Of a DNA stretch of 64,000 bases, positions 3,420-58,909 are shown piece by piece. The stretch is from Promethearchaeota archaeon. GTDB lineage: Archaea > Asgardarchaeota > Lokiarchaeia > Sigyniarchaeales > SOKP01. Under the pieces are notes generated by a model. That model did no database searches. It was not told where the DNA came from and worked only from the letters and a program-made list of their open reading frames with translations. Location of the stretch: assembly GCA_019058245.1 (NCBI GenBank), contig JAHPZJ010000006.1, forward strand, positions 1 to 64,000, written 5' to 3'. The translations under genes were made by a program, and so were the position numbers. Positions within the stretch are counted from its first letter, which is position 1. The number at the start of each line of letters is the position of its first letter.

Positions 3420-4508
3420 TCATACGTTAGAAAGAAATTTTCTAAGATCCTTTTTTATTTTATCGACTTTTTTATCTTTTATCCAGTATCTTATTTTAGG
3501 AGAGCTAAGGAAAGCTTGAATTTTCTCGTTTAATTCAGATAGTTTTTTTTTATCTTCTTTTGATAACTGAGGGACTGCTTCTTCTATTCTTTCTTTTACT
3601 TTTTGAACTTCTTCTGCAATAATTGGGATTTCTATTTGTTGTTTACCCTGAATTAATCTCTTCCTTATTATCTCTTTTATGCTATTTATCCAACCTTGAA
3701 TCCAGGGATAATTACCCTTTTTTTTTGGATCGTGTATAATAACTTCTTTTCTATTGACTATTATTAAATCATCCGGACAAGAATTTTCACATGCTCCACA
3801 ATAAAAACATTCATCTTCATTACACGCAATTTTACCATATTTTTTGACATCTTCAGCACTCTCTGGAATAAAAAAAGATTCCGTAGGGCAAATATTAACA
3901 CAAGCTTTACATCCTTGAGGATCACATTTATGGAGCATATTTTTTTTGATAATAACTTCTCCCTTTATTGGAGATTTGATTGAAAAGCAGTTTACTGGGC
4001 ATTCTTTTTGAATTTTATAATAATCTCTAACATTGTGTCTATCTCGTACTGATAAGCAGAGTTTGCAGATCTCATTTTTAGAATCCTCTATACATTTATC
4101 CATATCGATTTCGTAAAACTTTCCAATGGAGGGGAATTCTTCAATATCGATTTGATCTTCAGGAGATATATTTTCATGAAATGCATCATTTGGACAGATA
4201 ATAGCACATAGCATGCAATAACAGCATTTATCATGATCTATTAGAATTTTTGGATTATTTTCGTCTAAGATTCCTTGAGCAATCTCAGGAATTGGACCAA
4301 GCTCTATAGCATCAACAGGACAAACAATTTTACATAAAGAACATCCTATGCATCGTTTTATATCATATGTGAGTTTTTTATCTACATTTTGGAAGTTCCA
4401 TTTAAGTATTAATTGATCTGGTGTAATTTCTATATTTTTTGTAATGGACTCTTGTTCTCCAGTAGTGGATTTATCCTCAGATGCTATTTTTGAAATTTTT
4501 TTTTCCAC
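3420..4508 (-). CDS. fwdF: Polyferredoxin, FwdF-like (formylmethanofuran dehydrogenase subunit F family)
   Basis: Several CxxCxxCxxxCP motifs; 'CPVDAIELGPIPEIAQG..P.I.ID..KC..C..C..ICP' is typical of FwdF; GTG start. Confidence 0.7.
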   Translation of the reverse strand: MEKKISKIASEDKSTTGEQESITKNIEITPDQLILKWNFQNVDKKLTYDIKRCIGCSLCKIVCPVDAIELGPIPEIAQGILDENNPKILIDHDKCCYCMLCAIICPNDAFHENISPEDQIDIEEFPSIGKFYEIDMDKCIEDSKNEICKLCLSVRDRHNVRDYYKIQKECPVNCFSIKSPIKGEVIIKKNMLHKCDPQGCKACVNICPTESFFIPESAEDVKKYGKIACNEDECFYCGACENSCPDDLIIVNRKEVIIHDPKKKGNYPWIQGWINSIKEIIRKRLIQGKQQIEIPIIAEEVQKVKERIEEAVPQLSKEDKKKLSELNEKIQAFLSSPKIRYWIKDKKVDKIKKDLRKFLSNV

Positions 4509-26931: not shown

Positions 26932-27864
26932 TTAAGCTTGAATTACTTCCATTAATTTAGGGAATATTCGGGGATAATGCACTGCCATACAATGCACACC
27001 TGCTAACAATCCTTTTCGCTTTAGCTCAGAAATAAAGGGCTTGAAAAACTCATAGTTTGCTTGATCATATACTCTTTTTTGTTCCTTTTTATCATCCTTA
27101 AACTCAGTTTTGATATTTTTCCATTTCGCCAAAATATCTTTTGGAACATCAACTCCAGGAACAAATGTATCAAAACCCTTAGCAATACCATAACTTTTCA
27201 TTGGAAAAATTCCAAGTAAAACAGGTACATTATATTTTTTGATCTCACTTAAAAATTCAATAGTTCGATCCAAATCATATACAACTTGAGTTTGTATAAA
27301 TTCACAACCTGCTTGAGCCTTTCTTCCAATTTTTAAAATCTCAGCTTCCATAGGGTCTGCATTTGGATTCGCAGCAGCTCCTACATGTAGAGTAGGAGGG
27401 TGCTCAATTTCATGACCATTTATTGTTCCCTTATCAACCATTTCTTTTACTAATCTAACTAAAGTTGCTGAATCAAGATCAAATACTGGTTTTGATTCAG
27501 GCATATCTCCGAGTGCAGGATGATCACCAGTAAGAGATAACACATTCCTTAGCCCTAATGCATGACCACCCATAATCATTCCAGCAATTCCCAGTTTGTT
27601 CACGTCTCTTACTGTTAATTGCCAAATTACTTCTAATCCAGCTTCTTTTTGAATAATATGAGAAGCGGCCATACTATTAATTGTCACTATCCCAAGTGGG
27701 CTATCGGTTACATTAGCAGCAACTACGTATGGGGCCATTTCTTTAGCTTCTTGGATTGTATGTGAAAGATCACACGTTTTTTCAGGCTCAAGTTCACCTG
27801 TTAGTATGAAATCCCCATTCGCTAATTTTTCGCCCAATTTAGAATATATTTTTTTTTCTACCAT
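26932..27864 (-). CDS. metF: Methylenetetrahydrofolate reductase catalytic subunit (copy 1)
   Basis: 'TGELEP', 'ANVTD', 'QLTVRD.N', 'L.LTGDH...GD....PVFDLDS', 'G.EFIQTQ', 'GVHCMA'. Confidence 0.92.
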   Translation of the reverse strand: MVEKKIYSKLGEKLANGDFILTGELEPEKTCDLSHTIQEAKEMAPYVVAANVTDSPLGIVTINSMAASHIIQKEAGLEVIWQLTVRDVNKLGIAGMIMGGHALGLRNVLSLTGDHPALGDMPESKPVFDLDSATLVRLVKEMVDKGTINGHEIEHPPTLHVGAAANPNADPMEAEILKIGRKAQAGCEFIQTQVVYDLDRTIEFLSEIKKYNVPVLLGIFPMKSYGIAKGFDTFVPGVDVPKDILAKWKNIKTEFKDDKKEQKRVYDQANYEFFKPFISELKRKGLLAGVHCMAVHYPRIFPKLMEVIQA

Positions 27865-27871
27865 TTTAACT

Positions 27872-28552
27872 CTACCTCCATATCACTTCTCGTTGATGGC
27901 CAGATTCACTCCAATCAACTGGATCTCTCAATTTAGAAAATAGATCTAATCTACCAATTTCTTTCAATCGATTATAAATTAAGACCCAGCCACAATCTTT
28001 CTCGTAATTCCCAACTTCACATTTACCATTAACCATTCCTCCACATGGTCCATTCATAAGCGATTTAGCACATGTAGTTATGGGACAAATACCACCTGTT
28101 TCATTCAATAGACAATCACCACATCCTCGACATCGCATATAAAATCTGCCAATTCTCTCCGTCATACCCATAAATTCGGTATTATTGGTAACAAACACTT
28201 TCTTTTGTGGATGTTTCTTAGAAAGCACCTCAATTGTAGATTGAACACCAAGTCCACAACTCAGTGTGACAATGGCATCAGCGTTTTGTATATCAGCATC
28301 ATTTTTACGCACAACTTTAGCCATCTCCCTATTATCACAAACATCATCTACTACGAGTCCATTCACTATTTCATATCCTTCTTTTTCTAAAATTTCTTTC
28401 CATTCTTCTAAACCTTGTTCGCCACCTGTTTGACATAAAGCTGAACAAACCCCACAACTTACAAGAAACAATTTTTTAGCATTATTATCCTTCAGAACAT
28501 TAAGAACTTCTTCTACCGGCTTTTTAGTAGTTATAACAACCATTTTCTTCAC
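27872..28552 (-). CDS. metV: MTHFR small Fe-S/Zn subunit MetV (copy 1b)
   Basis: 'C..C...CQTGG', 'CGLG', 'C.GCG.C.L..TGGICP.T.CAKSL.NGPCGG...GKCEV.....C.W..IY.RL'. Confidence 0.9.
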   Translation of the reverse strand: MKKMVVITTKKPVEEVLNVLKDNNAKKLFLVSCGVCSALCQTGGEQGLEEWKEILEKEGYEIVNGLVVDDVCDNREMAKVVRKNDADIQNADAIVTLSCGLGVQSTIEVLSKKHPQKKVFVTNNTEFMGMTERIGRFYMRCRGCGDCLLNETGGICPITTCAKSLMNGPCGGMVNGKCEVGNYEKDCGWVLIYNRLKEIGRLDLFSKLRDPVDWSESGHQREVIWR

Positions 28553-28697
28553 GTCTTTTTATAAGAAATAATTATTAAAACTTTAGATATTTTAAGTATT
28601 GAAATTAATCATGATATTTATTGTTTTGAATTATATAATGTAATGATTTCGAAAAATAAATTTTAAAAATAATAAATAGGGTTGAATAATTAAATGC

Positions 28698-28790
28698 TTA
28701 TTTAGACCCATATTCTCCTGCTAGTACAAACTTGCCATTAGCAGGTTTTTCATTGAATCAAAAGTAATTCTTTTTTTAGTTATATTGACT
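28698..28790 (-). pseudogene. Decayed 5' end of metF
   Basis: Reads 'NEKPANGKFVLAGEYGSK*' versus MetF 'GEKLANGDFILTGELEP'; the DNA after the metV stop (TAG AGTCAATATA..) parallels the intact copy (TAG AGTTAAAATG..). Confidence 0.75.
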
Positions 28791-29456
28791 CTATCGCCAC
28801 ACTACTTCACGTTGATGACCAGATTCACTCCAATTTACCGGATCTCTTAATTTCGAAAATAGATCTAATCTCCCTAACGCTTTCAACCGATTATATATTA
28901 AAACCCATCCGCAATCTTTCTCGTAATTCCCAACTTCACATTTACCATTAACCATCCCTCCACATGGTCCATTCATAAGAGATTTAGCACATGTTGTTAT
29001 AGGACAAATACCGCCAGTTTCGTTTAGTAAACAGTCCCCGCAACCACGACAATGCATATAGAAGCGACCAATTCTCTCTGTCATACCCATAAATTCTGTA
29101 TTAGTACCAATAAAAACTGGAATTAGAGGATATTTTCGTTCTAATGCTTTAACTATACTTGCAACTCCCAATCCACAACTTAATGTTAAAATAGCGTCTA
29201 TATTCTTTAGATCTTCATCTATTTGCCGAAAATCTTTCATCATAAGTCTGTTATCACATACTTCTTCAGGAACAATTGTAACTATTACTTCGAACCCCTC
29301 CTTCTCCAATTTTTCTGCCATTTCTTTTGCACCCTCGGTACCACCAGTTTGACACATTGCGGCACAACTTCCGCAAGATACGAGTCCAATCTTTTTTACA
29401 TCTTTTAAAACGCTTAAAATTTCTTCAAAGGGTTTTTTTGTGGTTATTACTGTCAT
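28791..29456 (-). CDS. metV: MTHFR small subunit MetV (copy 1a)
   Basis: Same Cys motifs; C-terminal half nearly identical to 27872-28552. Confidence 0.9.
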   Translation of the reverse strand: MTVITTKKPFEEILSVLKDVKKIGLVSCGSCAAMCQTGGTEGAKEMAEKLEKEGFEVIVTIVPEEVCDNRLMMKDFRQIDEDLKNIDAILTLSCGLGVASIVKALERKYPLIPVFIGTNTEFMGMTERIGRFYMHCRGCGDCLLNETGGICPITTCAKSLMNGPCGGMVNGKCEVGNYEKDCGWVLIYNRLKALGRLDLFSKLRDPVNWSESGHQREVVWR

Positions 29457-48035: not shown

Positions 48036-48506
48036 TTAAAAAACTTGCCCTTCAGATTGATTGATTGTTTTTATAGGTCTTAAGACAACACAAACTCTTT
48101 CAACACTTCTTACATCTGCTCTACCGCGAAAAGACTCTATTAGTGCATCTAATTCAACAATTTCTGGCACATTAACTTTTACTAGAACCCCACATTCCCC
48201 AGCGAGGAAATATACTTCTTCACATTGAGGAAGGATCTGGGCTTCCCTTAATAGTTCTTTGGTTTCCGCAAGGCTTTTTGGAATTAGAGTAATGAATGCA
48301 ATAATACATCTTTCATCTTCTCGACAGACCTTTATAGTAAATTTTTCAATCACGCCTTCTTCTTGAAGCTTGATAACCCGTTTTCTAACCGTCGATTCAG
48401 ACAAATTTACCTTAGAATCTCCTGCTATTTCATGATATGGCCTTCTAGAATCCTCAAGAAGCATTTCAAGAATTCTTTTATCCTTATCATCTAGATTCTT
48501 CATCAA
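48036..48506 (-). CDS. Lrp/AsnC family regulator
   Basis: 'LDDKD..IL..L..DSR.....IA......LSESTV.KRV.KL...GVI..F'; RAM domain. Confidence 0.93.
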   Translation of the reverse strand: MMKNLDDKDKRILEMLLEDSRRPYHEIAGDSKVNLSESTVRKRVIKLQEEGVIEKFTIKVCREDERCIIAFITLIPKSLAETKELLREAQILPQCEEVYFLAGECGVLVKVNVPEIVELDALIESFRGRADVRSVERVCVVLRPIKTINQSEGQVF

Positions 48507-48598
48507 CTATTATCTCTCCTCTTATTTATAAAAAATATAAAAAATTTTTACTTAAAAATTTCAAAATAATATTTATCATTAATTAAATTCACAAATTC

Positions 48599-49537
48599 TC
48601 AGAGGTCTTTTAGGAGCGGTTGGAATAATCTTTCATAATGCACAGCCATGCAATGAATTCCCGCTGCTTTAGTTGTTTTCTTAATTTCTTTAATAAATGG
48701 TACATAAAATTCTAAATTAACTTTATCAATCGCATCATATTTGGCTTGTTTGTTTCCTTTATTATCTTTTTCTGCTTTCTTTAAAGCAGTAAGAAATTCC
48801 TTAGGAACTGATACACCAGGAATGTTCTCATTAAAATACCAGGCAATTCCATAATTTTTGATTGGAAAGAGTCCAAGTAAAACAGGGGTGTTAAATCTTT
48901 CTAATTCTTTTAAAAACTCTTTAGCATCATCTACATCAAATGAAGTTTGGGTTTGAATAAAATCGGCACCAACTTCTACCTTTCTACCAACTTTTAAGAT
49001 TTCTGGTTCTCTTGGATTGGAATTCGGATTTGCAGCACATCCCACATTTAGCTGAGGTCTTCCACCTCTTATTTCATTTCCTTCTAAATCAGTTCCATCA
49101 TCCACCATTTTTGAAACCAGGTCAATTAATTGTGTAGAATCTAAATCATATACTGGTCTAGCTCTTTGATGATCTCCGAGAGCAGTATGATCTCCAGTTA
49201 ACGCAAGCAAATTTTTAAGACCTAAGATTGCTCCACCTAATATATCTCCAAATAATGCAATTCGATTTCTATCTCGTACTGTCATCTGCCAAATTGCTTC
49301 TAACCCAACTTTTTCTTGGACTAAGTAGCAAGGAACCATGGAACACGTATAAGCATCTCCTTGAGGTCCATCTGTAACATTAGCAGCAATAATTTTTCCA
49401 GTTTTTTTCATTTCCTCTGCTGAATGCAAGACATGACCAATATCATAATCTTTTTCTGGTTCAAGTTCGCCCGTTATGACGAATTTTCCATCTCTAATCA
49501 CCTTTACTAAATTACTATAGGCAGGTCTTTTTGGCAA
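48599..49537 (-). CDS. metF: Methylenetetrahydrofolate reductase catalytic subunit (copy 2)
   Basis: 'TGELEP', 'ANVTDG', 'QMTVRDRNRIAL', 'LTGDH..LGD...ARPVYDLDS', 'GADFIQTQ'. Confidence 0.92.
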   Translation of the reverse strand: MPKRPAYSNLVKVIRDGKFVITGELEPEKDYDIGHVLHSAEEMKKTGKIIAANVTDGPQGDAYTCSMVPCYLVQEKVGLEAIWQMTVRDRNRIALFGDILGGAILGLKNLLALTGDHTALGDHQRARPVYDLDSTQLIDLVSKMVDDGTDLEGNEIRGGRPQLNVGCAANPNSNPREPEILKVGRKVEVGADFIQTQTSFDVDDAKEFLKELERFNTPVLLGLFPIKNYGIAWYFNENIPGVSVPKEFLTALKKAEKDNKGNKQAKYDAIDKVNLEFYVPFIKEIKKTTKAAGIHCMAVHYERLFQPLLKDL

Positions 49538-49538
49538 T

Positions 49539-50237
49539 TTATACGTTCTCCTCCTTCTTTTTTTCTTCTATATTAGAACTGGATTCATAAATATGTATGA
49601 ATCTTGGACTTGACCATATCCTATAATTTCTTGGAGGTCTATAATTTGTAAATAAATCCAGTCTATTAAATTTCTTAAGACGTTCCCATATTTTTACCCA
49701 TGCACAATCATGTATATAGCCACCTACTTCACATTTACCTTCAACTTGTCCTCCACAGGGACCATTGCTCAAATTTTTAGCACATCCAGCCATAGGACAG
49801 ATACCACCAGTCACTCCCAGTAAACATTCTCCACAGGTTTCACAATATTCTGCAAAATAATTCTCACTATTATTCTCTACTCCACCAAACATGCTGTTTT
49901 GTGCTGGAAAAGTGAGAATTGTAGGAATAATTCTGTTTAACATTCCTACCCCTAAACCACATGCTAATGATACAATTGCATCATATTCTTCAATAAATGG
50001 TCTTAATGTTGTTGCAGCAATTCTATCATCGCACTGTCGTAAAACCGTAATGGCTTTCCATTTTAATTCTTTTCCTTCGCTTCTTGCTTTTAATTCGAGC
50101 ATTTGTGCCAGGACTTTTGCTTCATTTATTGAACGTGGAGGTTGACAACATCCATCACACCCTGCAACTAGTATTTTCGAATATGGTTTTATCATATCAT
50201 ATATTTCTTCAATATCCTTTTGTTTTGTTATAATCAT
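49539..50237 (-). CDS. metV: MTHFR small subunit MetV (copy 2)
   Basis: 'GCDGC', 'RQCD', 'ACG.G', 'C..CG.C.L..TGGICP...CAK.L.NGPCGG...GKCEV....C.W'. Confidence 0.9.
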   Translation of the reverse strand: MIITKQKDIEEIYDMIKPYSKILVAGCDGCCQPPRSINEAKVLAQMLELKARSEGKELKWKAITVLRQCDDRIAATTLRPFIEEYDAIVSLACGLGVGMLNRIIPTILTFPAQNSMFGGVENNSENYFAEYCETCGECLLGVTGGICPMAGCAKNLSNGPCGGQVEGKCEVGGYIHDCAWVKIWERLKKFNRLDLFTNYRPPRNYRIWSSPRFIHIYESSSNIEEKKKEENV

Positions 50238-50277
50238 TTTATAAAAATCTCCTAATTTTATGAACTTGATAAATTTC

Positions 50278-53200
50278 TTATTCAGTTAATATAATTTCTT
50301 TTTTTTCTTCTTTTTTTATTTCTTTCTTCTCTTTTTTATAATCATTTTCAATAGGACCTAATTTTTGTAATTTTTCTGTGAATTCCTTGATCGTTTCAGC
50401 AAAGATTTTTCCTTCACTGGCAGAAACCCATTTTCGCATGAATCTTGCTGGATTAATCCCTAGAGACTCTATAATTTGCTCAATCTCTTCCGTTCTTCTT
50501 AATGTATCTTGATTTCCCGCGATGTAATGACAATCACCAAGATGACAACCTCCAATAAAAACACCATCAGCACCTTCTAAAAAGGCTTGCAATATGAAAC
50601 TCTTTGGGATACCACCTGAACACATAACTCTTATAGTCCTTACATTTGGGGGATATTGATATCGGCTAACTCCAGCAAGATCCGCACCTGCGTAGCTACA
50701 CCAATTACAGAGAAAAGCAACTATTCTTGGTCGTCCATCTGCTACTGTTACCTTAGCAGCTTCAGCTATCATTGGTTCAATTTGAATACGTCCAAAATGA
50801 CTCATTGTTATAGCTTCTGCTGGACATTCAGCAGCACAATCTCCGCATCCTTTACAAAGTAAAGGATTAACTTCTGAAATCATTAAACCTTCTTCATATT
50901 TGACACCAACGGCGCCGTAATTACACACTTCAGCACATCTATTACAACCAATACATAAAGCAGGGTCAACCTTGGAAATAATACCTTCAGTTTTTAGAAT
51001 ATCTTTAGATAAAATCGTAGTGGCTCTGGAAGCAGCTGACATTGCTTGTGCTATACTTTCTCTAATTGTTGCTGTTCCACGGGAAGTACCACATAAAAAA
51101 ATACCATCTGTAGCAAAATCTGAGGGCCGGAGTTTTACATGAGCCTCTAAGAAAAATTCATCATCATTTACAGGGACTTTTAACATTTTTGCTAGATTTT
51201 CATTTGCTTCACCATCAGCAACTATTCCTGCACTTAGAGCAACTAAATCAGCATTTATCTTAATATCCCCAATATCTCGTTTTTTTATATAAATACTTAA
51301 ATTTCCATTTTCTAATTTAATTTCAGGAGGTTGCTCATCTTTAAATCTTATAAAAATTACTCCTTTTTCTCTTGCTAAATTGTAGTATTTCTCTTTAAAC
51401 CCATAGGTTCTAATATCTCTATAAAGAACAGTAATATTAAGATTTGGATTTATTTCTTTTACTTTTAAAGCATTTTTAATAGCTTCACTACAACACATTC
51501 TACTACAATAAGGATGTTCCTCGTTTCTTGAGCCTACACACTGTAGCATCACTATAGAATTTAATTGTTTAATTTTTTCTTCTTCAGTAAATAGAATTTT
51601 CTCTAGATCGGATTGTAAAATTACTCTCTCATCTTTACCAAAAAGAAATTCACCATCCTTTGGTTGATATTCATGAGCTCCAGTAGCAACTATAATAATA
51701 CCGTGTTGAAATTCTTTCTTTTGTTTATCTCCACCAAAAGTAATATTTGTTGTAAAGTTACAAACATATCCTCCTATTGAGTTGATTCTAGCATTAAGAA
51801 ATATATTAATAAGTTTATGATTTTTGACTTTATTTATTAAATCTTTAAGAAGTTCCTGAACATCATGTTTTTCTAAAGTATGATAAATATTATTAGAAAA
51901 TCCTCCTAATCTCTTACTTTTCTCAATAAGAAATACTTCAAATCCTTGATTTGCGAGATTTAACGCAGCAGTCATACCTGCTACACCTCCACCAATTACC
52001 ATCCCCTTATGGATAACCTCCACTTGTTGTTCTTGTAGTGGAACTAATTTTCGAGCTCTAGCAACAGCCATTCTTACAAGATCCTTTGCTTTTTCTGTCG
52101 CTTCTTCTGGTTCATGCATATGCACCCATGAACATTGATCTCTGATATTTGCTAGATCAAACAGATATTTATTTAAACCTGCCTCTCTAATAGTCGCTTG
52201 AAATAATGGTTCATGAGTTCTTGGAGTACATGAAGCAACTATTACCCTATTTAAGTTATGTTCCTTTATTTGTTCTTTAATATTAGTTTGCGTATCAGCG
52301 GAACATGTGTACAAGTTTCGTTCGGCATGAATTACATCAGGTAATTTATTTGCGTATTCAACAACTTCAGGAACATCTACAACCCCCCCAATATTAATAC
52401 CACAGTGACATATGAAAACTCCGATCCTGGGGGGTTCTCCAATTGTATCCCTTTCTTTTGGCAATTCTTTTTCAGTGACTAAAGTATTCCTCACATCAGA
52501 TAAAAGAATATTAACAGCCCCAGCGGCAGCACTTGCCTCTACAACTGTTTCTGGAATATCTTTTGGTTCTGAAATCATGCCACATACATAAATTCCTTCT
52601 CTGGAGGATTCTACTGGTGAAAAGGGTTTTGTTTTACAAAAATTATAACTATTTAATTCGATGTTTAATTTTTTTGCTAAAGCTTTAGTGCTATGATTTG
52701 GTAAAGCACCAACTGCTAAAACAACAAGATTAAATGTCTCACTAATTACTTTTCCTTCTTCATTTTCATAATGAAGAATTAAATCCTTAGTCTCTGATAT
52801 TTCTTTAATATCTGATATTCTACTTCTGATATATCTTACACCATATTCATTTTGCGCACGTTCAATATACTTATCGAAGTCCTTTCCAACAGCTCTCACA
52901 TCCATTGAAAATATCGTTGGTTCAATAATTTCCATATGTTCTTTTGCAATTACTGCCTCTTTAGCCGTATACATACAACAAACTGATGAGCAATACTCTG
53001 CACCATGCTTTTTATCTCTTGAGCCAACACATTGTAAAAATGCTACTTTTTTTGGAATAATTCCATCAGAAGGTCTGAGAATAAGCCCAGAATGTGGACC
53101 GCTAGCACTTAATATGCGTTCAAATTGAATACTTGTAATCACATTTAGATATTTCCCATATCCATATTGCTGTGTAGGACCAGGATCATATTCATCAAAT

Positions 53201-53769
53201 CCTAATGCTAAAACAATAGCTCCAACATTTAGAGTAGTGGATTTATCTTCTAAAGTATAATCTATTGCTTTTGCTTTACATACACCCTTACAAAATCCGC
53301 ATCCAATACATAATTCTTGATCAATTGAAAAAACCAATGGAACTGCTTGTGGAAATTTTACTGATATTGCTGATCTATTTGAAAGTCCCTCATTAAAAAA
53401 ATCAATAGCCTCTACTGGACATTCTTGAGCGCACACACCGCACCCAGTACATTTTTCTTGATCTAATAATAGAGATCTCTGTTTTAACTCAACAGTAAAA
53501 TTACCAGGATTTCCATCTATTTTTTCCAAATTTGTATTAATCAAAAGTGTGATATTTTCATGGCGTCCTGCTGCAACCAGTTTGGGAGCCAAAATACAGA
53601 TTGAACAATCATTAGTAGGAAAGGTCTTGTCTAATTGAGACATAACTCCTCCAATGCTCATCGATGATTCTACTAAATAAACTTTAAAACCTGAATCTGC
53701 TAAATCCATTGAAGCTTGAATTCCTGCAATTCCTCCACCTACAACTAATACTGATCCTATTTTTTCCAT
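50278..53769 (-). CDS. hdrA: Tandem-duplicated HdrA fused to C-terminal MvhD
   Basis: Two FAD modules (GGGIAG; GGGVAG), 'LDKTFPTNDC', internal 'RIGVFICHCG', two 'QCVGSR..CS..CC', ferredoxins, then 'AFLCNWCSYAGAD..RVMCSG..GCH.GDCHY'. Confidence 0.93.
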   Translation of the reverse strand: MEKIGSVLVVGGGIAGIQASMDLADSGFKVYLVESSMSIGGVMSQLDKTFPTNDCSICILAPKLVAAGRHENITLLINTNLEKIDGNPGNFTVELKQRSLLLDQEKCTGCGVCAQECPVEAIDFFNEGLSNRSAISVKFPQAVPLVFSIDQELCIGCGFCKGVCKAKAIDYTLEDKSTTLNVGAIVLALGFDEYDPGPTQQYGYGKYLNVITSIQFERILSASGPHSGLILRPSDGIIPKKVAFLQCVGSRDKKHGAEYCSSVCCMYTAKEAVIAKEHMEIIEPTIFSMDVRAVGKDFDKYIERAQNEYGVRYIRSRISDIKEISETKDLILHYENEEGKVISETFNLVVLAVGALPNHSTKALAKKLNIELNSYNFCKTKPFSPVESSREGIYVCGMISEPKDIPETVVEASAAAGAVNILLSDVRNTLVTEKELPKERDTIGEPPRIGVFICHCGINIGGVVDVPEVVEYANKLPDVIHAERNLYTCSADTQTNIKEQIKEHNLNRVIVASCTPRTHEPLFQATIREAGLNKYLFDLANIRDQCSWVHMHEPEEATEKAKDLVRMAVARARKLVPLQEQQVEVIHKGMVIGGGVAGMTAALNLANQGFEVFLIEKSKRLGGFSNNIYHTLEKHDVQELLKDLINKVKNHKLINIFLNARINSIGGYVCNFTTNITFGGDKQKKEFQHGIIIVATGAHEYQPKDGEFLFGKDERVILQSDLEKILFTEEEKIKQLNSIVMLQCVGSRNEEHPYCSRMCCSEAIKNALKVKEINPNLNITVLYRDIRTYGFKEKYYNLAREKGVIFIRFKDEQPPEIKLENGNLSIYIKKRDIGDIKINADLVALSAGIVADGEANENLAKMLKVPVNDDEFFLEAHVKLRPSDFATDGIFLCGTSRGTATIRESIAQAMSAASRATTILSKDILKTEGIISKVDPALCIGCNRCAEVCNYGAVGVKYEEGLMISEVNPLLCKGCGDCAAECPAEAITMSHFGRIQIEPMIAEAAKVTVADGRPRIVAFLCNWCSYAGADLAGVSRYQYPPNVRTIRVMCSGGIPKSFILQAFLEGADGVFIGGCHLGDCHYIAGNQDTLRRTEEIEQIIESLGINPARFMRKWVSASEGKIFAETIKEFTEKLQKLGPIENDYKKEKKEIKKEEKKEIILTE

Positions 53770-53771
53770 GT

Positions 53772-54542
53772 CTAAACCTCTTTAATCGAAATAAAAGTGG
53801 GAATTTCTTCATTTATTTGATCAACATCAACAAGACCTCGAGCACGAAGAGTTACAATATGCTGTAATACCTTATGAGGTTCTATTTTAATTTCCTTCGC
53901 GATTTCTGGAACAGATTTTCCTTCATTCTTAATTTTTTCCAGAATTTTATGACGAATAAACTCATTTTCAATAGCATTATCAAGGATTTCCTCAAATTCT
54001 TCTATAGGTATTATGTTCCCATACACATTTCCCTCAGTTGTTAATTCCCTTTGACGAGCAACTAAAGCTCTTAACCGTGAATCACATAAAGCAAATTTAG
54101 TAGCACTTAAATTATCGAGAATTTGTTTTTTTAATTTATCATTTTTGATAGGAGATGGCCCAAGTTTACGGATATGTTCAGTAAATTCTGTGACTATTTC
54201 AGCGAATCTGTTTCCTTCTGCAGCTGAAACCCAATCAAGCCGTACTCGATCTGCGAAATTGATCATTGATAATACTTTTCCTAACATTTTCATTTTTAAT
54301 TCTGCTTCATAATTTCCACTTATATAATGACAGTCTCCTAAATGACATCCTAAAACAAGGACTCCATCAATGCCATTCATAAAAGCTTCAGCAATAAATA
54401 CAGGATCGACTCTTCCAGAACACATAACTCGTATAACTCTAACATTTGTTGGATATTGGATTCGACTAACACCTGCGAGGTCTGCACCTGCATAGGAACA
54501 CCAATTACATAAAAATCCTAAAATTTTTGGTTCAAATACCAT
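53772..54542 (-). CDS. mvhD: MvhD ([2Fe-2S] delta subunit) with C-terminal winged-helix extension
   Basis: 'FLCNWCSYAGAD', 'RVMCSGRVDP', 'GCHLGDCHY', 'WVSAAEG'; C-terminal 'SVPEIAKEIKIEPHKVLQHIVTLRARGLV'. Confidence 0.9.
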   Translation of the reverse strand: MVFEPKILGFLCNWCSYAGADLAGVSRIQYPTNVRVIRVMCSGRVDPVFIAEAFMNGIDGVLVLGCHLGDCHYISGNYEAELKMKMLGKVLSMINFADRVRLDWVSAAEGNRFAEIVTEFTEHIRKLGPSPIKNDKLKKQILDNLSATKFALCDSRLRALVARQRELTTEGNVYGNIIPIEEFEEILDNAIENEFIRHKILEKIKNEGKSVPEIAKEIKIEPHKVLQHIVTLRARGLVDVDQINEEIPTFISIKEV

Positions 54543-56210
54543 CTAATCTCCACCTCCGTAAGTTACAATTTCAGCTATAATTTGATCTGATGTGAAATGA
54601 TGTATAATAATGGCGTTCTGAGGACAACTAGCACCACAAACTCCACATCCTTTACAAACAACTTTATTAACTACTGCAGTATCAGTTTCTTCATCTTTAG
54701 ATATTGCACTATATGGACAAATCTTTATACATGCTTCACATCCTATGCATAAATCAGGATTAACTTCGGCAGTAGAACCTTCTACTTCTAGCATTTCTTT
54801 GGAAAGAATTGTACTAGCTCTCGAAGCTGCTGCATTTGATTGTGATATACTTTCTGAAATATCTGCTGGCCAATGAGCAGATCCACACACAAATACTCCA
54901 TCTGTAGCAAAATCAACAGGTCTTAATTTCACATGAGCTTCTAAAAAGAAGTTATTTTCTTCTAATGGAACTTTTAACATTTTTGCTAATCGCTCTGAAT
55001 CTTCATTAGCAATAAGAGGCATTGATAATACTACAAGATCATGGGGAATTCCAATAACTTGATTCATAAATTCATTATAAACTTCAAGATGATCCTCCTT
55101 AATAATTGGAGGTTTATCTGGTAAATATTTTATAAATATTATTCCCATTTCTCTTGCTCTTCTATAGTATTCCTCATAAGTAACACCCTGTGCTTGTATA
55201 TCTCTAAAAATTATGGTAATATTAGCATCTGGATTTTGTTCCTTGATTAAAATTGCATTTTTAAGAGCGGTCATACAACATATATTAGAACAGTATCTTC
55301 GTTCTTCATTTCTACACCCTACACATTGAATCATTGCAATATTTTTAGCGTTAACTGAATTTTCTTTTAACAATCCCTCTAATTCTAATTGACTTATTAT
55401 AGTTTTCCCATTATAATTATAATATCCTTCAGGTGATAATACCCTTGCTCCTGTAGCAACGATAATTGCACCTACCTCAATTTCTATCATTTTTTTCTCT
55501 TGTAGAATAACTATTTTATAGTTTCCAACATATCCTTCAATCTTTTCTATCGTTGCAGATTTATATACATCTATTTCTTTATGGCTTTCTGCTAAATTTC
55601 TTGTTTCTAATATATTTGAAGCATCTTCATTAGTAGGATATGTTTTATGGAGATGTCTAATTAGTCCTCCTAATTCAGAATCTTTTTCTATCAAACTTAC
55701 TTTAAAACTTTGATTTGCTAAAGTTAATGCAGCATTCATCCCTGCAATTCCTCCACCTATTACTGCTGCAGAAGGTATTACGCTAACTTGCATTTTTTCT
55801 AGTGGTTCTAATAAAGATGCCTTGTATACACTCATTCTAATGAGATCTTTAGCTTTTTCAGTGCCTTTTTGTGGTTCTTTCATATGTACCCAAGAATCCT
55901 GATCACGAATATTTACCATTTCAAATAAATAGGGATTTAGACCTGCCTCTTGACATGTTGATCGAAATAAAGGTTCATGAGTTCGAGGAGAACACGATGC
56001 TACAATAACACGATTTAAATTATGTTCCTTAATGTTTTCCCTGATATTACTTAACCCAACTTCTGAACATGTATAAAGATTTCCAGCACTATAAGCTACA
56101 TTTGGTAGTGTTTTGGTATATTCTATTAGTTCAGTGATATCTAAAACTCCACCGATATTTGTACCACAGTGACAAATAAAAACTCCAATTCTAATATCTT
56201 CATTTGACAT
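54543..56210 (-). CDS. hdrA: HdrA-like subunit (matches the second half of the tandem HdrA)
   Basis: 'RIGVFICHCG', 'ASCSPRTHE', GGGIAG, 'QCVG.R..CS..CC', C-terminal ferredoxin. Confidence 0.9.
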   Translation of the reverse strand: MSNEDIRIGVFICHCGTNIGGVLDITELIEYTKTLPNVAYSAGNLYTCSEVGLSNIRENIKEHNLNRVIVASCSPRTHEPLFRSTCQEAGLNPYLFEMVNIRDQDSWVHMKEPQKGTEKAKDLIRMSVYKASLLEPLEKMQVSVIPSAAVIGGGIAGMNAALTLANQSFKVSLIEKDSELGGLIRHLHKTYPTNEDASNILETRNLAESHKEIDVYKSATIEKIEGYVGNYKIVILQEKKMIEIEVGAIIVATGARVLSPEGYYNYNGKTIISQLELEGLLKENSVNAKNIAMIQCVGCRNEERRYCSNICCMTALKNAILIKEQNPDANITIIFRDIQAQGVTYEEYYRRAREMGIIFIKYLPDKPPIIKEDHLEVYNEFMNQVIGIPHDLVVLSMPLIANEDSERLAKMLKVPLEENNFFLEAHVKLRPVDFATDGVFVCGSAHWPADISESISQSNAAASRASTILSKEMLEVEGSTAEVNPDLCIGCEACIKICPYSAISKDEETDTAVVNKVVCKGCGVCGASCPQNAIIIHHFTSDQIIAEIVTYGGGD

Positions 56211-56215
56211 TTTTT

Positions 56216-57511
56216 TTACCCCCTCATAATTGCTTCAGCTGCCTTAGCTGCCGCTCCACTTGCATCCACTACTGAACTTGGGATGTCCATTGGTTCTCTA
56301 CAAGCTCCACAGAGAAATATTCCTTCTTTAGAGGATATTTGTGGATAGTAACTATTTGCTTTGAAAAAATTGAAATCATTTGTTTTAATTCCTAATATTT
56401 TAGCTAAAGTTACAGCATCTTTTTTTGGTACCATAGTAGTAGCTAATATTACTAAGTCAAATTTAAATTGTTTAACTTGTGAGGTATTAATATCTTCATA
56501 AACAATGATAGGATTTCTCTGTTCATCTTCTAAAATCTTAGCTACTTTTCCCTTGATGTATGAAATAGCGTATTTATTTTCTCCCCTTTCAATATATTCT
56601 CGAAATCCTTTACCTGCGGCTCGAAGATCGATGTAAAATATCGAAGTTTCTATTTCATTATTATGCTCATAAGCAATCATAGCTTCTTTAGTAGTATACA
56701 TACAACAACAAGATGAACAATATGGATTGTTCTTTATATCCCTTGAACCTACACAATTAATAAAAGCTAATTTTTTTGGCTCATTTTTATCTGATGGTCT
56801 TGTTAAATGTCCACCTAAAGGTCCAGAAGCGGAAATTAATCTTTCAAATTCTAAAGCAGTAACAACGTTGGGATATCGACCATAACCTAATGAATTAAGA
56901 GATTTTGGATTAAATATATCGTAACCCGTTGCCACAATGATTGAACCAACGTTTAATTCAATTTCTTCATCTTCTTGATCGAAATCGATTGCTTCTCTTT
57001 CGCATACTTTTTCACATATTCTACAAGCATTTTTTGTAAAAAATAAACAATTTTCTCGATCTATAGTCATTATTGAGGGAACTCCTTGGACATAATCAAT
57101 ATAAATTGCTCTACGTTTTCTTAATTTCATATCAAATTCATCCTCCACTCTCATTGGACATTTTTCTATACATTGACCACAATTTATACATTCATCTTCC
57201 TTTACATATCGAGCCTTTTTAAAAATTTTCACTTTAAAATCCCCTTGTTGACCTGATAAATTTTTAACCTCTGAAAGAGTATGTAAAGTAATATTGGGAT
57301 GTCTGAAACACTCTGCTAGCTTAGGAGCTAAAATACAGATAGAACAATCATTTGTAGGAAAAGTTTTATCAAGTTGAGCCATCCGACCTCCAATACAGGC
57401 ATTTTTTTCAATTAAATCAACTTTGATACCTCTTTCAGCTAAATCTAAAGATGCTTGAATTCCTGCAATTCCTCCACCAATAACCATTACATTTTTTGAA
57501 ATTTTACTCAA
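56216..57511 (-). CDS. hdrA: HdrA-like subunit (matches the first half of the tandem HdrA)
   Basis: GGGIAG, 'LDKTFPTNDCSICIL', inserted ferredoxin, 'CVGSRD...YCSSCCC'. Confidence 0.9.
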   Translation of the reverse strand: MSKISKNVMVIGGGIAGIQASLDLAERGIKVDLIEKNACIGGRMAQLDKTFPTNDCSICILAPKLAECFRHPNITLHTLSEVKNLSGQQGDFKVKIFKKARYVKEDECINCGQCIEKCPMRVEDEFDMKLRKRRAIYIDYVQGVPSIMTIDRENCLFFTKNACRICEKVCEREAIDFDQEDEEIELNVGSIIVATGYDIFNPKSLNSLGYGRYPNVVTALEFERLISASGPLGGHLTRPSDKNEPKKLAFINCVGSRDIKNNPYCSSCCCMYTTKEAMIAYEHNNEIETSIFYIDLRAAGKGFREYIERGENKYAISYIKGKVAKILEDEQRNPIIVYEDINTSQVKQFKFDLVILATTMVPKKDAVTLAKILGIKTNDFNFFKANSYYPQISSKEGIFLCGACREPMDIPSSVVDASGAAAKAAEAIMRG

Positions 57512-57531
57512 ATTTGAACACCTCTTACCCT

Positions 57532-58401
57532 TTAAGTAATTTTTTGCAGAACATCATTAACTTTAATCCTATGGAAATTCAATCCAAGTTTTTCTGTATT
57601 CATTCCCATAGCTAAAGCAATAAGTTCGGTAATATAAAAAACGGGAAAATTATAATCTGTATTATTTCTTTTATTTATTTCTCTCTGATTGAAATCGAAT
57701 TGTTGAAAACAAGCGGGACATATAACGGCAATACAATCTGTTCCTGCTTCTTTCATACTTTTAAGTTTGTTCTCTAGCATAATTAATGAGATCTCTTTAT
57801 CAGTTTTTTCTACTGGATTTCCACAACAATCATTCTTCAGATTATAATCAACTGGATCTGCTCCAATTATTTCTATTAATTTATCTAATGTTTGGGGATT
57901 AAGTGGATCATCCCAATTCATTATCTCAGATGGGCGTAAATAATGACATCCAGGGTGACCTGCAACTTTTAAATCTTTTAATGGTTTTTTAACCATTTTT
58001 TTAATTTTTTCAATGTTTTCATATAATACTTCAGCAAAATGCTTAATATCAATATTCCCTTTGTAGGACATTCCTATTGCCTTTAATTTGGAATTGATTA
58101 CTTCTTTCTTCTCATTATCATTATCTAAAATATATTTAATTGTTTTAAGAGATTCTGTACATCCAGAACAAAGACTTAATACGTTACTCTTACTTTTTTC
58201 AAAAAGACATAAATTTCTTGCTCCTAAGGCTAAGAATGATTCATGGTCTAGTTGAGCTGCTCCTGTAGGATCTGGACAACATGAACAATTAGCTTGATCT
58301 CCTACTTTCATCCCAATTTTTTCAAATGTTTTTCGCGCTGATGCTTCTAAAAATGGAAGTCTTCCAGGGATAACACACCCTAAAAAATAGTTATACGACA
58401 T
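57532..58401 (-). CDS. hdrB: Heterodisulfide reductase subunit B (CCG domains)
   Basis: 'FLGC', 'SCCP', 'C.GC', 'GCHYLRP', 'CCG', 'CPAC..QFD'. Confidence 0.93.
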   Translation of the reverse strand: MSYNYFLGCVIPGRLPFLEASARKTFEKIGMKVGDQANCSCCPDPTGAAQLDHESFLALGARNLCLFEKSKSNVLSLCSGCTESLKTIKYILDNDNEKKEVINSKLKAIGMSYKGNIDIKHFAEVLYENIEKIKKMVKKPLKDLKVAGHPGCHYLRPSEIMNWDDPLNPQTLDKLIEIIGADPVDYNLKNDCCGNPVEKTDKEISLIMLENKLKSMKEAGTDCIAVICPACFQQFDFNQREINKRNNTDYNFPVFYITELIALAMGMNTEKLGLNFHRIKVNDVLQKIT

Positions 58402-58402
58402 T

Positions 58403-58909
58403 TTATTTACTTACCTCCAATATTTTTATTTTCTTCTTAAAATCAGTAGCTTCTAATAATTTTTTAATCTCATTAATGTCAGCAGACTCTACTTTTGGGA
58501 GTTCTAATTGTTCTCTCCTGCGAATAATTGGTTGAGTTAGCGGGATTGCTAAACCATTTTCGATTACACTTATTGCTTGTGTTTTAAATGTCTCGGGATA
58601 AGGTTCTCCTTCTGACACAATCCTGTTTTTAATCCTTTCAAATATTTCTGTTAAAAAAACATTTTGAGGACATTCTTCTACACACATCTGACACGTACAA
58701 CATAACCATATATTAGGTTTTTGATCTTTTATTAACAAGTCTTTGAGCCCTAAAAGTGATTGTTCAATAATTTTTCGTGGGTTATATTCACCTTCTGTAA
58801 CAAGAGCTACTGGACACGAGCTAGAACAAGTTCCGCATTGATAACAATAATTTAGTGAGAAATCTTCCTTTATGAGTTCATTTCGAAATTCAAATTCAAC
58901 CATTTGCAT
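58403..58909 (-). CDS. hdrC: Heterodisulfide reductase subunit C
   Basis: 'CYQCGTCSSSCP', 'YNPRKII', 'W.C.TC..C.E.CPQ'. Confidence 0.93.
   Translation of the reverse strand: MQMVEFEFRNELIKEDFSLNYCYQCGTCSSSCPVALVTEGEYNPRKIIEQSLLGLKDLLIKDQKPNIWLCCTCQMCVEECPQNVFLTEIFERIKNRIVSEGEPYPETFKTQAISVIENGLAIPLTQPIIRRREQLELPKVESADINEIKKLLEATDFKKKIKILEVSK

Follow-up and report, generated by a model that had tools for sequence, protein, structure and literature searches.

The 64,000-nucleotide (nt) stretch of DNA analyzed here (contig JAHPZJ010000006.1, "the window") belongs to a Promethearchaeota (Lokiarchaeia) genome with an assembly completeness of 76%, and its close relatives mostly carry the same label. 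On the minus strand, from 58909 down to 48036, it holds a heterodisulfide reductase (Hdr) gene set joined to metV and metF, in the order hdrC-hdrB-hdrA'-hdrA''-mvhD::HTH-hdrAA::mvhD-metV-metF and followed by lrp. All of these open reading frames (ORFs) were confirmed in place (Table 1).

An earlier note on this DNA had described eight tightly packed same-strand genes from hdrC to metF with an Lrp regulator behind them, and this description was borne out: the successive gaps are 1, 20, 5, 0, 2, 40 and 1 nt, and 92 nt separate metF from lrp. Purine-rich stretches resembling Shine-Dalgarno sites precede every operon gene except hdrC. Together with the 0-40 nt gaps they predict, indirectly, a single transcript running from hdrC to metF. 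A promoter and terminator scan, which used a bacterial-type model, returned counts at chance level. The same note had seen no MvhA/G or Fdh gene, and we likewise identified no mvhA/G or fdh ORF in the window, the operon included. Elsewhere, the genome has genes for two Mvh-type large subunits, with MvhAG on contig C13 beside other hdr genes.

Table 1. Features of the hdr-metVF operon and of two further loci in the window (aa, amino acids; FeS, iron-sulfur; FAD, flavin adenine dinucleotide; TrxR, thioredoxin reductase; HTH, helix-turn-helix).
Feature	Position	Strand	Description
hdrC	58403..58909	-	168 aa, two [4Fe-4S] motifs; TIGR03290 E 1.8e-28, 99 bits, below cut-off 160
hdrB	57532..58401	-	289 aa, two CCG domains; PF02754 x2; TIGR03288 296 bits, cut-off 345
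hdrA' (A module)	56216..57511	-	431 aa; FAD/TrxR domain, Cys197, E356, K409, inserted ferredoxin
hdrA'' (B module)	54543..56210	-	555 aa; N-terminal FeS, FAD/TrxR, E356/K409, C-terminal ferredoxin
mvhD::HTH	53772..54542	-	256 aa; PF02662 E 3e-53 at residues 7-128; weak HTH at 200-240
hdrAA::mvhD	50278..53769	-	1163 aa; A module ~1-430, B module ~445-1000, MvhD ~1014-1140; adjoins metV
metV	49539..50237	-	232 aa, cysteine-rich FeS subunit; PF12225 E 2.5e-30; conserved cysteines
metF (MetF1, Hdr-linked paralog)	48599..49537	-	312 aa; PF02219 E 2e-30
Lrp/AsnC regulator	48036..48506	-	directly behind metF also in most relatives
metV-metV-metF2 (second locus, without hdr)	26932..29456	-	MetF2 49% identical to MetF1
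FwdF-like polyferredoxin, stand-alone	3420-4508	-	131 bits, cut-off 375

Architecture of the HdrA and MvhD modules

The earlier note had taken hdrA' and hdrA'' for one hdrA in two pieces. Both ORFs are real, but they are not the halves of one HdrA. In the alignment the 431-aa product runs collinear with residues 1-420 and the 555-aa product with residues 445-997 of the 1163-aa protein. Because they match successive parts of it, the "split hdrA" is by this comparison a tandem (double) HdrA divided at the module junction. A frameshift or assembly break was ruled out as the cause, the same split being found in 21 related loci and in a paralogous cluster of the same genome.

The two kinds of module differ in what they retain (residue numbering after the solved HdrA 5ODC). 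The A modules keep Cys194/197, E356, K409, the cluster ligands of the TrxR domain and the inserted ferredoxin and have no N-terminal domain; hdrA' is also without the C-terminal domain. In the B modules the N-terminal domain, the C-terminal ferredoxin and E356/K409 are present, and Cys197 and the inserted ferredoxin are missing. Domain and profile searches found no GltD-type NAD(P)H insert in any HdrA of the window. As the earlier note had counted, there are four FAD-binding GxGxxG modules, E356 and K409 being kept in all of them, and two MvhD domains, each with a complete [2Fe-2S] cysteine set (positions 12, 15, 41, 66 and 71 in the free MvhD). However, because A and B modules complement each other within each pair, the architecture suggests two asymmetric A/B pairs with one MvhD port each, and hence two complete bifurcation paths rather than four.

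Complementary tandem HdrAs of anaerobic methanotrophic archaea (ANME) and Moorella have been described as a built-in heterodimer (PMC9012536), and in methanogen structures a mobile arm, made of the donor, MvhD and HdrA's N- and C-terminal domains, serves the FAD that belongs to the other HdrA copy (PMC12350162). Each A+B pair would accordingly form a pseudo-dimer with one complete electron path, which would start at the MvhD of B and lead to the FAD of A. The mobile arm (N-terminal cluster, C-terminal ferredoxin and MvhD) would come from the B module; Cys197, the FAD that bifurcates and the exit through the inserted ferredoxin would come from the A module.

The fate of E356/K409 in an older, unsplit hdrAA form of the operon (see below) fits the prediction of this one-path model: the B module reads S/R in 37 of 39 proteins while the A module is intact in 39/39. 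Both modules are intact in all 48 window-type HdrA pairs. Taken with Cys197 and the inserted ferredoxin exit, the two residues are kept in 48/48 window-type pairs and in every older-form A module.

The free MvhD (53772-54180 region) carries a 125-aa extension with a winged-helix end, which is kept in relatives and in the sister cluster. Besides the HdrAs of the window the genome encodes five intact tandem HdrAs; in total it has at least 8 HdrB, at least 7 HdrC, more than 12 HdrA-family and about 10 FrhB-like genes, and no McrA was found in it.

Genes in front of metV in related genomes

The MetF1 ortholog was located in 72 loci, 70 of which show the gene before metV and are informative. An hdr gene stands directly before metV in 70/70, kin genomes not being independent samples, and the linkage is therefore conserved in the relatives. 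In 40 of the 70 the arrangement is the older six-gene form, hdrAA::mvhD-hdrC-hdrB-metV-metF, which also occurs in another taxonomic order (G059 and G060). In the other 30 an MvhD-terminated gene directly precedes metV: 16 have the full window layout, 5 are without hdrBC, 2 are reduced, 5 are cut by a contig end and 2 are GltD-like.

The hdrBC-free loci (L087, L092-L095) consist of a divergent frhB-like gene and then hdrA'-hdrA''-mvhD-hdrAA::mvhD-metV-metF. At the two GltD-like loci (L089:6545-9277 and L091), found in two metagenome-assembled genomes (MAGs), metV is preceded by a 910-aa GltD-like::ferredoxin::MvhD protein and there is no hdrBC. This protein has a degenerate HdrA start, a GltD/NfnB-like NAD(P)H module, a C-terminal ferredoxin and MvhD, and these loci look like a MetVF fed directly by NAD(P)H. 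Reduced operons at L041, L084 and L090 (an hdrC fragment joined to hdrAA::mvhD; hdrCB-hdrA' with a single B::MvhD) may have arisen by recombination between the repeated hdrA modules or by assembly collapse.

In the MetF tree all these loci form one clade (99%), with the window type nested inside the six-gene type (99% SH-aLRT). On the other hand, the approximately unbiased (AU) test rejects a grouping of the window HdrAs with the six-gene-type HdrAs (p ~1e-54 and 1e-57), and in the trees the window hdrB and hdrA'A'' come out as sisters of their counterparts in the genome's own Hdr-Flx cluster. This cluster (C6:142167-156025) has a core 55-61% identical to the window operon, hdrC being at 55%. 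It reads hdrC-hdrB-frhB-hdrA'-hdrA''-mvhD::HTH-hdrAA-mvhD, then AsrA/AsrB-like Flx genes (C6:151936-154868, after the last mvhD), which are absent from the window operon, and a second frhB-like gene. It is the likely source of the window's Hdr core.

Because MetF is nested in the older type while HdrA and hdrB group with the native Hdr-Flx paralogs, the Hdr neighbor of metVF must have been swapped in place by a native paralog and, separately, by a GltD fusion, with the C-terminal MvhD held constant. That both replacements end in MvhD is the strongest argument, a comparative one only, that metVF and its Hdr neighbor would be functionally coupled through MvhD. The likeness to Moorella pointed out in the earlier note holds for gene order; the operon is, however, without a GltD insert and its MetF lies in an archaeal clade. 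As far as the trees show, the shared order was not inherited from those bacteria and is probably convergent, a product of local in-place replacement. We ruled out that the whole operon came from an acetogen by horizontal transfer, since MetF falls in the archaeal clade and the Hdr genes are closest to native paralogs.

A divergent FrhB-like gene occurs in many window-type relatives and shares 58% identity with the gene that ends the Hdr-Flx cluster; in the host genome an esterase occupies the corresponding position.

One-carbon genes and a candidate Mer replacement

The host genome encodes FwdA/B/C, Ftr, Mch, Mtd, RFAP synthase, CdhA/B/C and MtrH-like proteins. The genes of the tetrahydromethanopterin (H4MPT) branch lie on contigs other than that of the window, the fwd operon being on C13. 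Full-length CdhD/E had no match in the host genome and is present in 11 of 12 congeners. Mer did not score above its family cut-off in any genome of the order (0/56), of the genus (0/37) or in 17 further genomes of the family (0/17), and did so in 5/5 genomes from other orders of the class. Fhs was found in 0/37 genomes of the genus and Mtd in 36/37. As Mer is below cut-off or not found while Mtd and the rest of the branch are present, the H4MPT branch seems to be missing exactly the step that MetVF can perform.

The one-carbon (C1) carrier had been left open in the earlier note. It now leans to H4MPT, since Mer and Fhs were not found and Mtd is present. H4MPT specificity has also been proposed for an archaeal MetF group of the same composition (PMC9012536). 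The fwdF gene that had been cited at 3420 as a sign of H4MPT is weak evidence, for the ORF encodes a FwdF-like polyferredoxin only. We rejected it as proof because it stands alone and scores below cut-off. This polyferredoxin, encoded far from the C13 fwd operon, could be a low-potential acceptor for an Hdr complex.

MetF1 groups with Asgard and Bathyarchaeia sequences, apart from clostridial MetF (29 rows, 100% SH-aLRT, in a tree built without Moorella, Sporomusa and ANME-1 sequences), and is at most ~40% identical to representatives from outside the archaeal clade. Its Glu24, Asp116 and Gln197 align with catalytic and pterin-binding positions of solved methylenetetrahydrofolate reductases (MTHFRs) and are invariant in 104 MetF1 rows. 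The second locus of the window has no hdr nearby, and its two metV genes encode nearly identical C-terminal FeS halves and different N-terminal halves. MetF2 has its nearest relatives in a family (f2) that is Fhs-positive and Mtd-negative, and in a genus without MetF1 (g18) Mtd is also missing from 3/4 genomes. For these two reasons we favor a division in which MetF1 would act on H4MPT and MetF2 on tetrahydrofolate (H4F), to which the genomes G089 and G049, described below, are counter-examples.

Most other Asgard MetVF, like MetF2, have no hdr alongside. A luciferase-like F420 oxidoreductase is encoded close to metF2 in several relatives, and the metVF genes of Bathyarchaeia are situated near fwdA and mch. 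In other Asgard lineages (L151, L154, L155, L066) a true mer stands beside metV-metF, and both enzymes coexist. In family f12 (L158-L162) a distant metF, which falls outside the main archaeal MetF clade, is followed by two mtrH-like genes with a 231-aa ORF between them.

For HdrBC the earlier note had considered a partner other than the coenzyme M-coenzyme B heterodisulfide (CoM-S-S-CoB). HdrB retains the cysteine ligands of both non-cubane clusters (alignment to 5ODC_B). Its loops beside these cysteines differ from those of methanogen HdrB, while three other paralogs in the genome keep methanogen-like loops. A different disulfide is plausible, since HdrB scores 296 bits against a CoB-CoM equivalog cut-off of 345, its loops are changed, and McrA and ComA were not found in the host genome (76% complete). 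In several related loci hdrBC is missing, for which reason it is either dispensable or supplied in trans.

The reading we prefer, to which we give about even odds (0.5), is that on methylene-H4MPT MetVF takes the place of Mer, with MvhD as its docking site, and that the step is coupled in this way to ferredoxin and a thiol/disulfide couple. The operon would then encode a soluble MetVF-Hdr complex responsible, instead of Mer, for the methylene/methyl step in the archaeal, H4MPT-based Wood-Ljungdahl branch. MetV would plug MetF into the fused MvhD, at the spot used by MvhAG, FdhAB and ElpAB in methanogens; the sister cluster encodes Flx at the position corresponding to this putative docking. The methylene/methyl-H4MPT couple lies at about -320 mV and NAD at -320 mV. 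Because both couples are near -320 mV, MetVF on H4MPT would fit thermodynamically where the sister cluster has its Flx/NAD module. It would thus offer a mid-potential couple, and such couples (H2, formate, F420H2) enter Hdr at the MvhD port (PMC12350162, PMC9012536).

In the reductive direction, reduced ferredoxin and a thiol pool oxidized at HdrBC would jointly reduce methylene-H4MPT, a confurcation that would serve as an acetogenic electron sink; methyl oxidation would be the reverse. An acetogenic direction has been proposed for Lokiarchaeia (cited in PMC10667645). The second HdrA pair and its MvhD would accept electrons from a different donor, for which an FrhB-like F420H2 module, encoded divergently or in trans, is the likeliest candidate, and the disulfide at HdrBC is probably not CoM-S-S-CoB. 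In its fullest form, MetVF1 would be methanopterin-specific and would form the mid-potential arm of an Hdr supercomplex that has four flavins and two ports and couples the methyl step, F420H2 (FrhB-like), ferredoxin and a non-CoM/CoB disulfide. This form we hold to be unlikely as a whole, at perhaps half the chance of the simpler reading. If true, the supercomplex would be a new kind of bifurcating Mer replacement, and its natural variants (two-flavin, HdrBC-free, GltD-fed) would map the wiring of type IV MTHFRs.

Complex formation, substrate, docking and bifurcation we infer from sequence comparison and gene order. The structure predictions count neither for nor against docking: complexes of MetV with the fused MvhD, with a 60-row alignment each, gave ipSAE values of 0.27 and 0.24 against a mark of 0.32, controls not run. 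In the AlphaFold model of MetV the N-terminal domain is confident and the FeS half poor (mean pLDDT 69), and a Foldseek search with it gave no PDB match at E <= 0.001 and hence no template for the structure.

Several findings weigh against the replacement of Mer by an Hdr-coupled MetVF. FolD is present in 61/61 relatives, and the glycine cleavage system (GcvT/GcvP) and DHPS are present too. The second MetVF, with MetF2, could be the Mer substitute instead. One complete genome (G089, 100%) has Mtd, and MetF1 was not found in it; conversely, G049 (80% complete) has MetF1, and Mtd was not found. G059 and G060 carry an Hdr-linked MetF plus a true Mer. Three Mer-like (luciferase-like) F420 oxidoreductases stay at or below 155 bits, the cut-off being 349, so that a divergent Mer is possible. 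HdrBC is missing from five window-type loci, from G060 and from the two GltD-like loci. Finally, bifurcation has yet to be demonstrated in any such enzyme, those of Moorella and Sporomusa included (PMC8760232, PMC9430772).

The strongest rival, itself rather unlikely, is a role on H4F as in Moorella and Sporomusa. Methylene-H4F from glycine/serine breakdown, with a couple at -200 mV (PMC9430772), would be a high-potential sink, Hdr would be fed by F420H2 or ferredoxin, and methyl-H4F would go to carbon monoxide dehydrogenase/acetyl-CoA synthase (CODH/ACS), while H4MPT would be served by MetF2 or a divergent F420 enzyme. All biochemically studied MetVF act on H4F (PMC8760232). The folate-binding positions of MetF1 are conserved, and the GcvT/GcvP, FolD and DHPS genes and the Mer of G059 and G060 point the same way. 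Nevertheless, with Fhs at 0/37 the genus has no full H4F branch, it is MetF2 and not MetF1 whose nearest relatives are Fhs-positive and Mtd-negative, and loss of MetF1 accompanies loss of Mtd in 3/4 g18 genomes.

A second possibility, which we regard as improbable, keeps the wiring of MetVF to MvhD and does without bifurcation: electrons would simply pass from F420H2, NAD(P)H or ferredoxin to the methylene-pterin, and HdrBC would be optional. The two MAGs in which a GltD-like::MvhD fusion, with no E356/K409 module, stands for the entire Hdr part would agree with this, as would the five loci that have no hdrBC yet have the divergent FrhB-like gene. In Sporomusa, moreover, the enzyme has been interpreted as a membrane-linked acceptor, bifurcation not being demonstrated (PMC9430772). 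However, the conservation of Cys197, E356, K409 and the ferredoxin exit across the window-type pairs and older-form A modules argues otherwise, and the machinery would be costly for a simple transfer that Mer manages alone.

Least probable is mere co-regulation, in which the Hdr core would partner MvhAG or Flx from elsewhere and metVF would be a separate ferredoxin-dependent (type II) enzyme on a shared transcript: the genome does have many Hdr paralogs and two MvhAG sets, in Sporomusa MetVF and HdrABC-MvhD failed to co-purify (PMC9430772), and no hdr stands beside MetF2 or most other Asgard MetVF, but the Hdr neighbor was exchanged twice, each time for another MvhD-terminated module, and Sporomusa pull-downs did show interaction (PMC9430772).

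The replacement of Mer by an MvhD-docked MetVF would supply a step that is missing from the acetogenic pathway attributed to Lokiarchaeia. It touches two questions in the literature: the electron route of Hdr-type MTHFRs, where work on Moorella and Sporomusa has yet to prove donor, second partner and bifurcation, and the use of an archaeal MetF in place of Mer on H4MPT, as proposed for ANME-1. A Mer-less lineage with two MetF paralogs, one Hdr-linked and one free, is suited to a side-by-side comparison, and its natural Hdr variants point to MvhD as the docking port.

Relation to known Hdr and MTHFR complexes

By its genes the operon would be classed as a type IV (Hdr-type) MTHFR. It shares with MetFV-HdrCBA-MvhD of Moorella thermoacetica and Sporomusa ovata the same six gene families, the order hdrC-hdrB-hdrA-mvhD-metV-metF (PMC9430772, PMC8760232), a tandem HdrA with E356/K409 and the lack of a hydrogenase in the cluster. 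The NADH-oxidizing GltD insert in HdrA is found in the Moorella form only and is absent from Sporomusa (PMC9430772); the window operon has none either. Unlike the acetogens, which have one of each, the window has two tandem HdrA units and two MvhD. It keeps the inserted ferredoxin, its MetF is of the archaeal clade, and the host has an H4MPT branch and no Fhs.

The MetVF of ANME-1 and Ca. Syntrophoarchaeum, a proposed Mer replacement (PMC9012536), belongs to the same archaeal MetF group, which includes Bathyarchaeia and Asgard sequences. Common to both are the lack of Mer, the retention of Fwd, Ftr, Mch and Mtd, and a tandem HdrA with complementary Cys197 and N-terminal domain. In contrast, no Mcr was found in the host, hdrBC is usually part of the cluster and there is a second MetVF paralog. 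Nor is the host nearly free of H4F enzymes, as is typical of ANME-1: FolD, GcvT and DHPS are present and only Fhs is missing. The ANME-1 metF is not clustered with hdrA, unlike that of the window, whereas MetFV-HdrA-MvhD gene clusters have been noted in Ca. Syntrophoarchaeum (PMC9012536). One archaeal cluster of this kind was also noted in Methanomassiliicoccus (PMC6085437). For the Lokiarchaeia cluster no describing paper was found in the open-access literature, subscription journals lying outside the search.

With the methanogen MvhAGD-, FdhAB-MvhD- and ElpABC-HdrABC complexes (PDB 5ODC, 7BKB, 8RVU; PMC12350162) the operon shares the FAD residues and FeS ligands of HdrA, the MvhD port and the non-cubane cysteines of HdrB. 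It differs in its asymmetric A/B modules, which replace a homodimer, in having no mvhAG or fdhAB, and in an HdrB with diverged loops and a score below the CoB-CoM cut-off. The Hdr-Flx type (NADH/ferredoxin/disulfide), represented by the C6 copy, has the same core order, and its hdrB and split pair are sister paralogs; the window, on the other hand, has metV-metF in place of the AsrA/AsrB-like Flx genes and no frhB-like gene in the operon.

The operon is neither a methanogen Mvh-Hdr nor an Hdr-Flx. Its components and the general idea are already known, and it is an archaeal variant of the acetogen enzyme, whose mechanism is unsolved. What is new here is the two-unit HdrA anatomy, the in-place swaps of modules around a constant MvhD, the pattern of E356/K409 loss and the order-wide lack of Mer.

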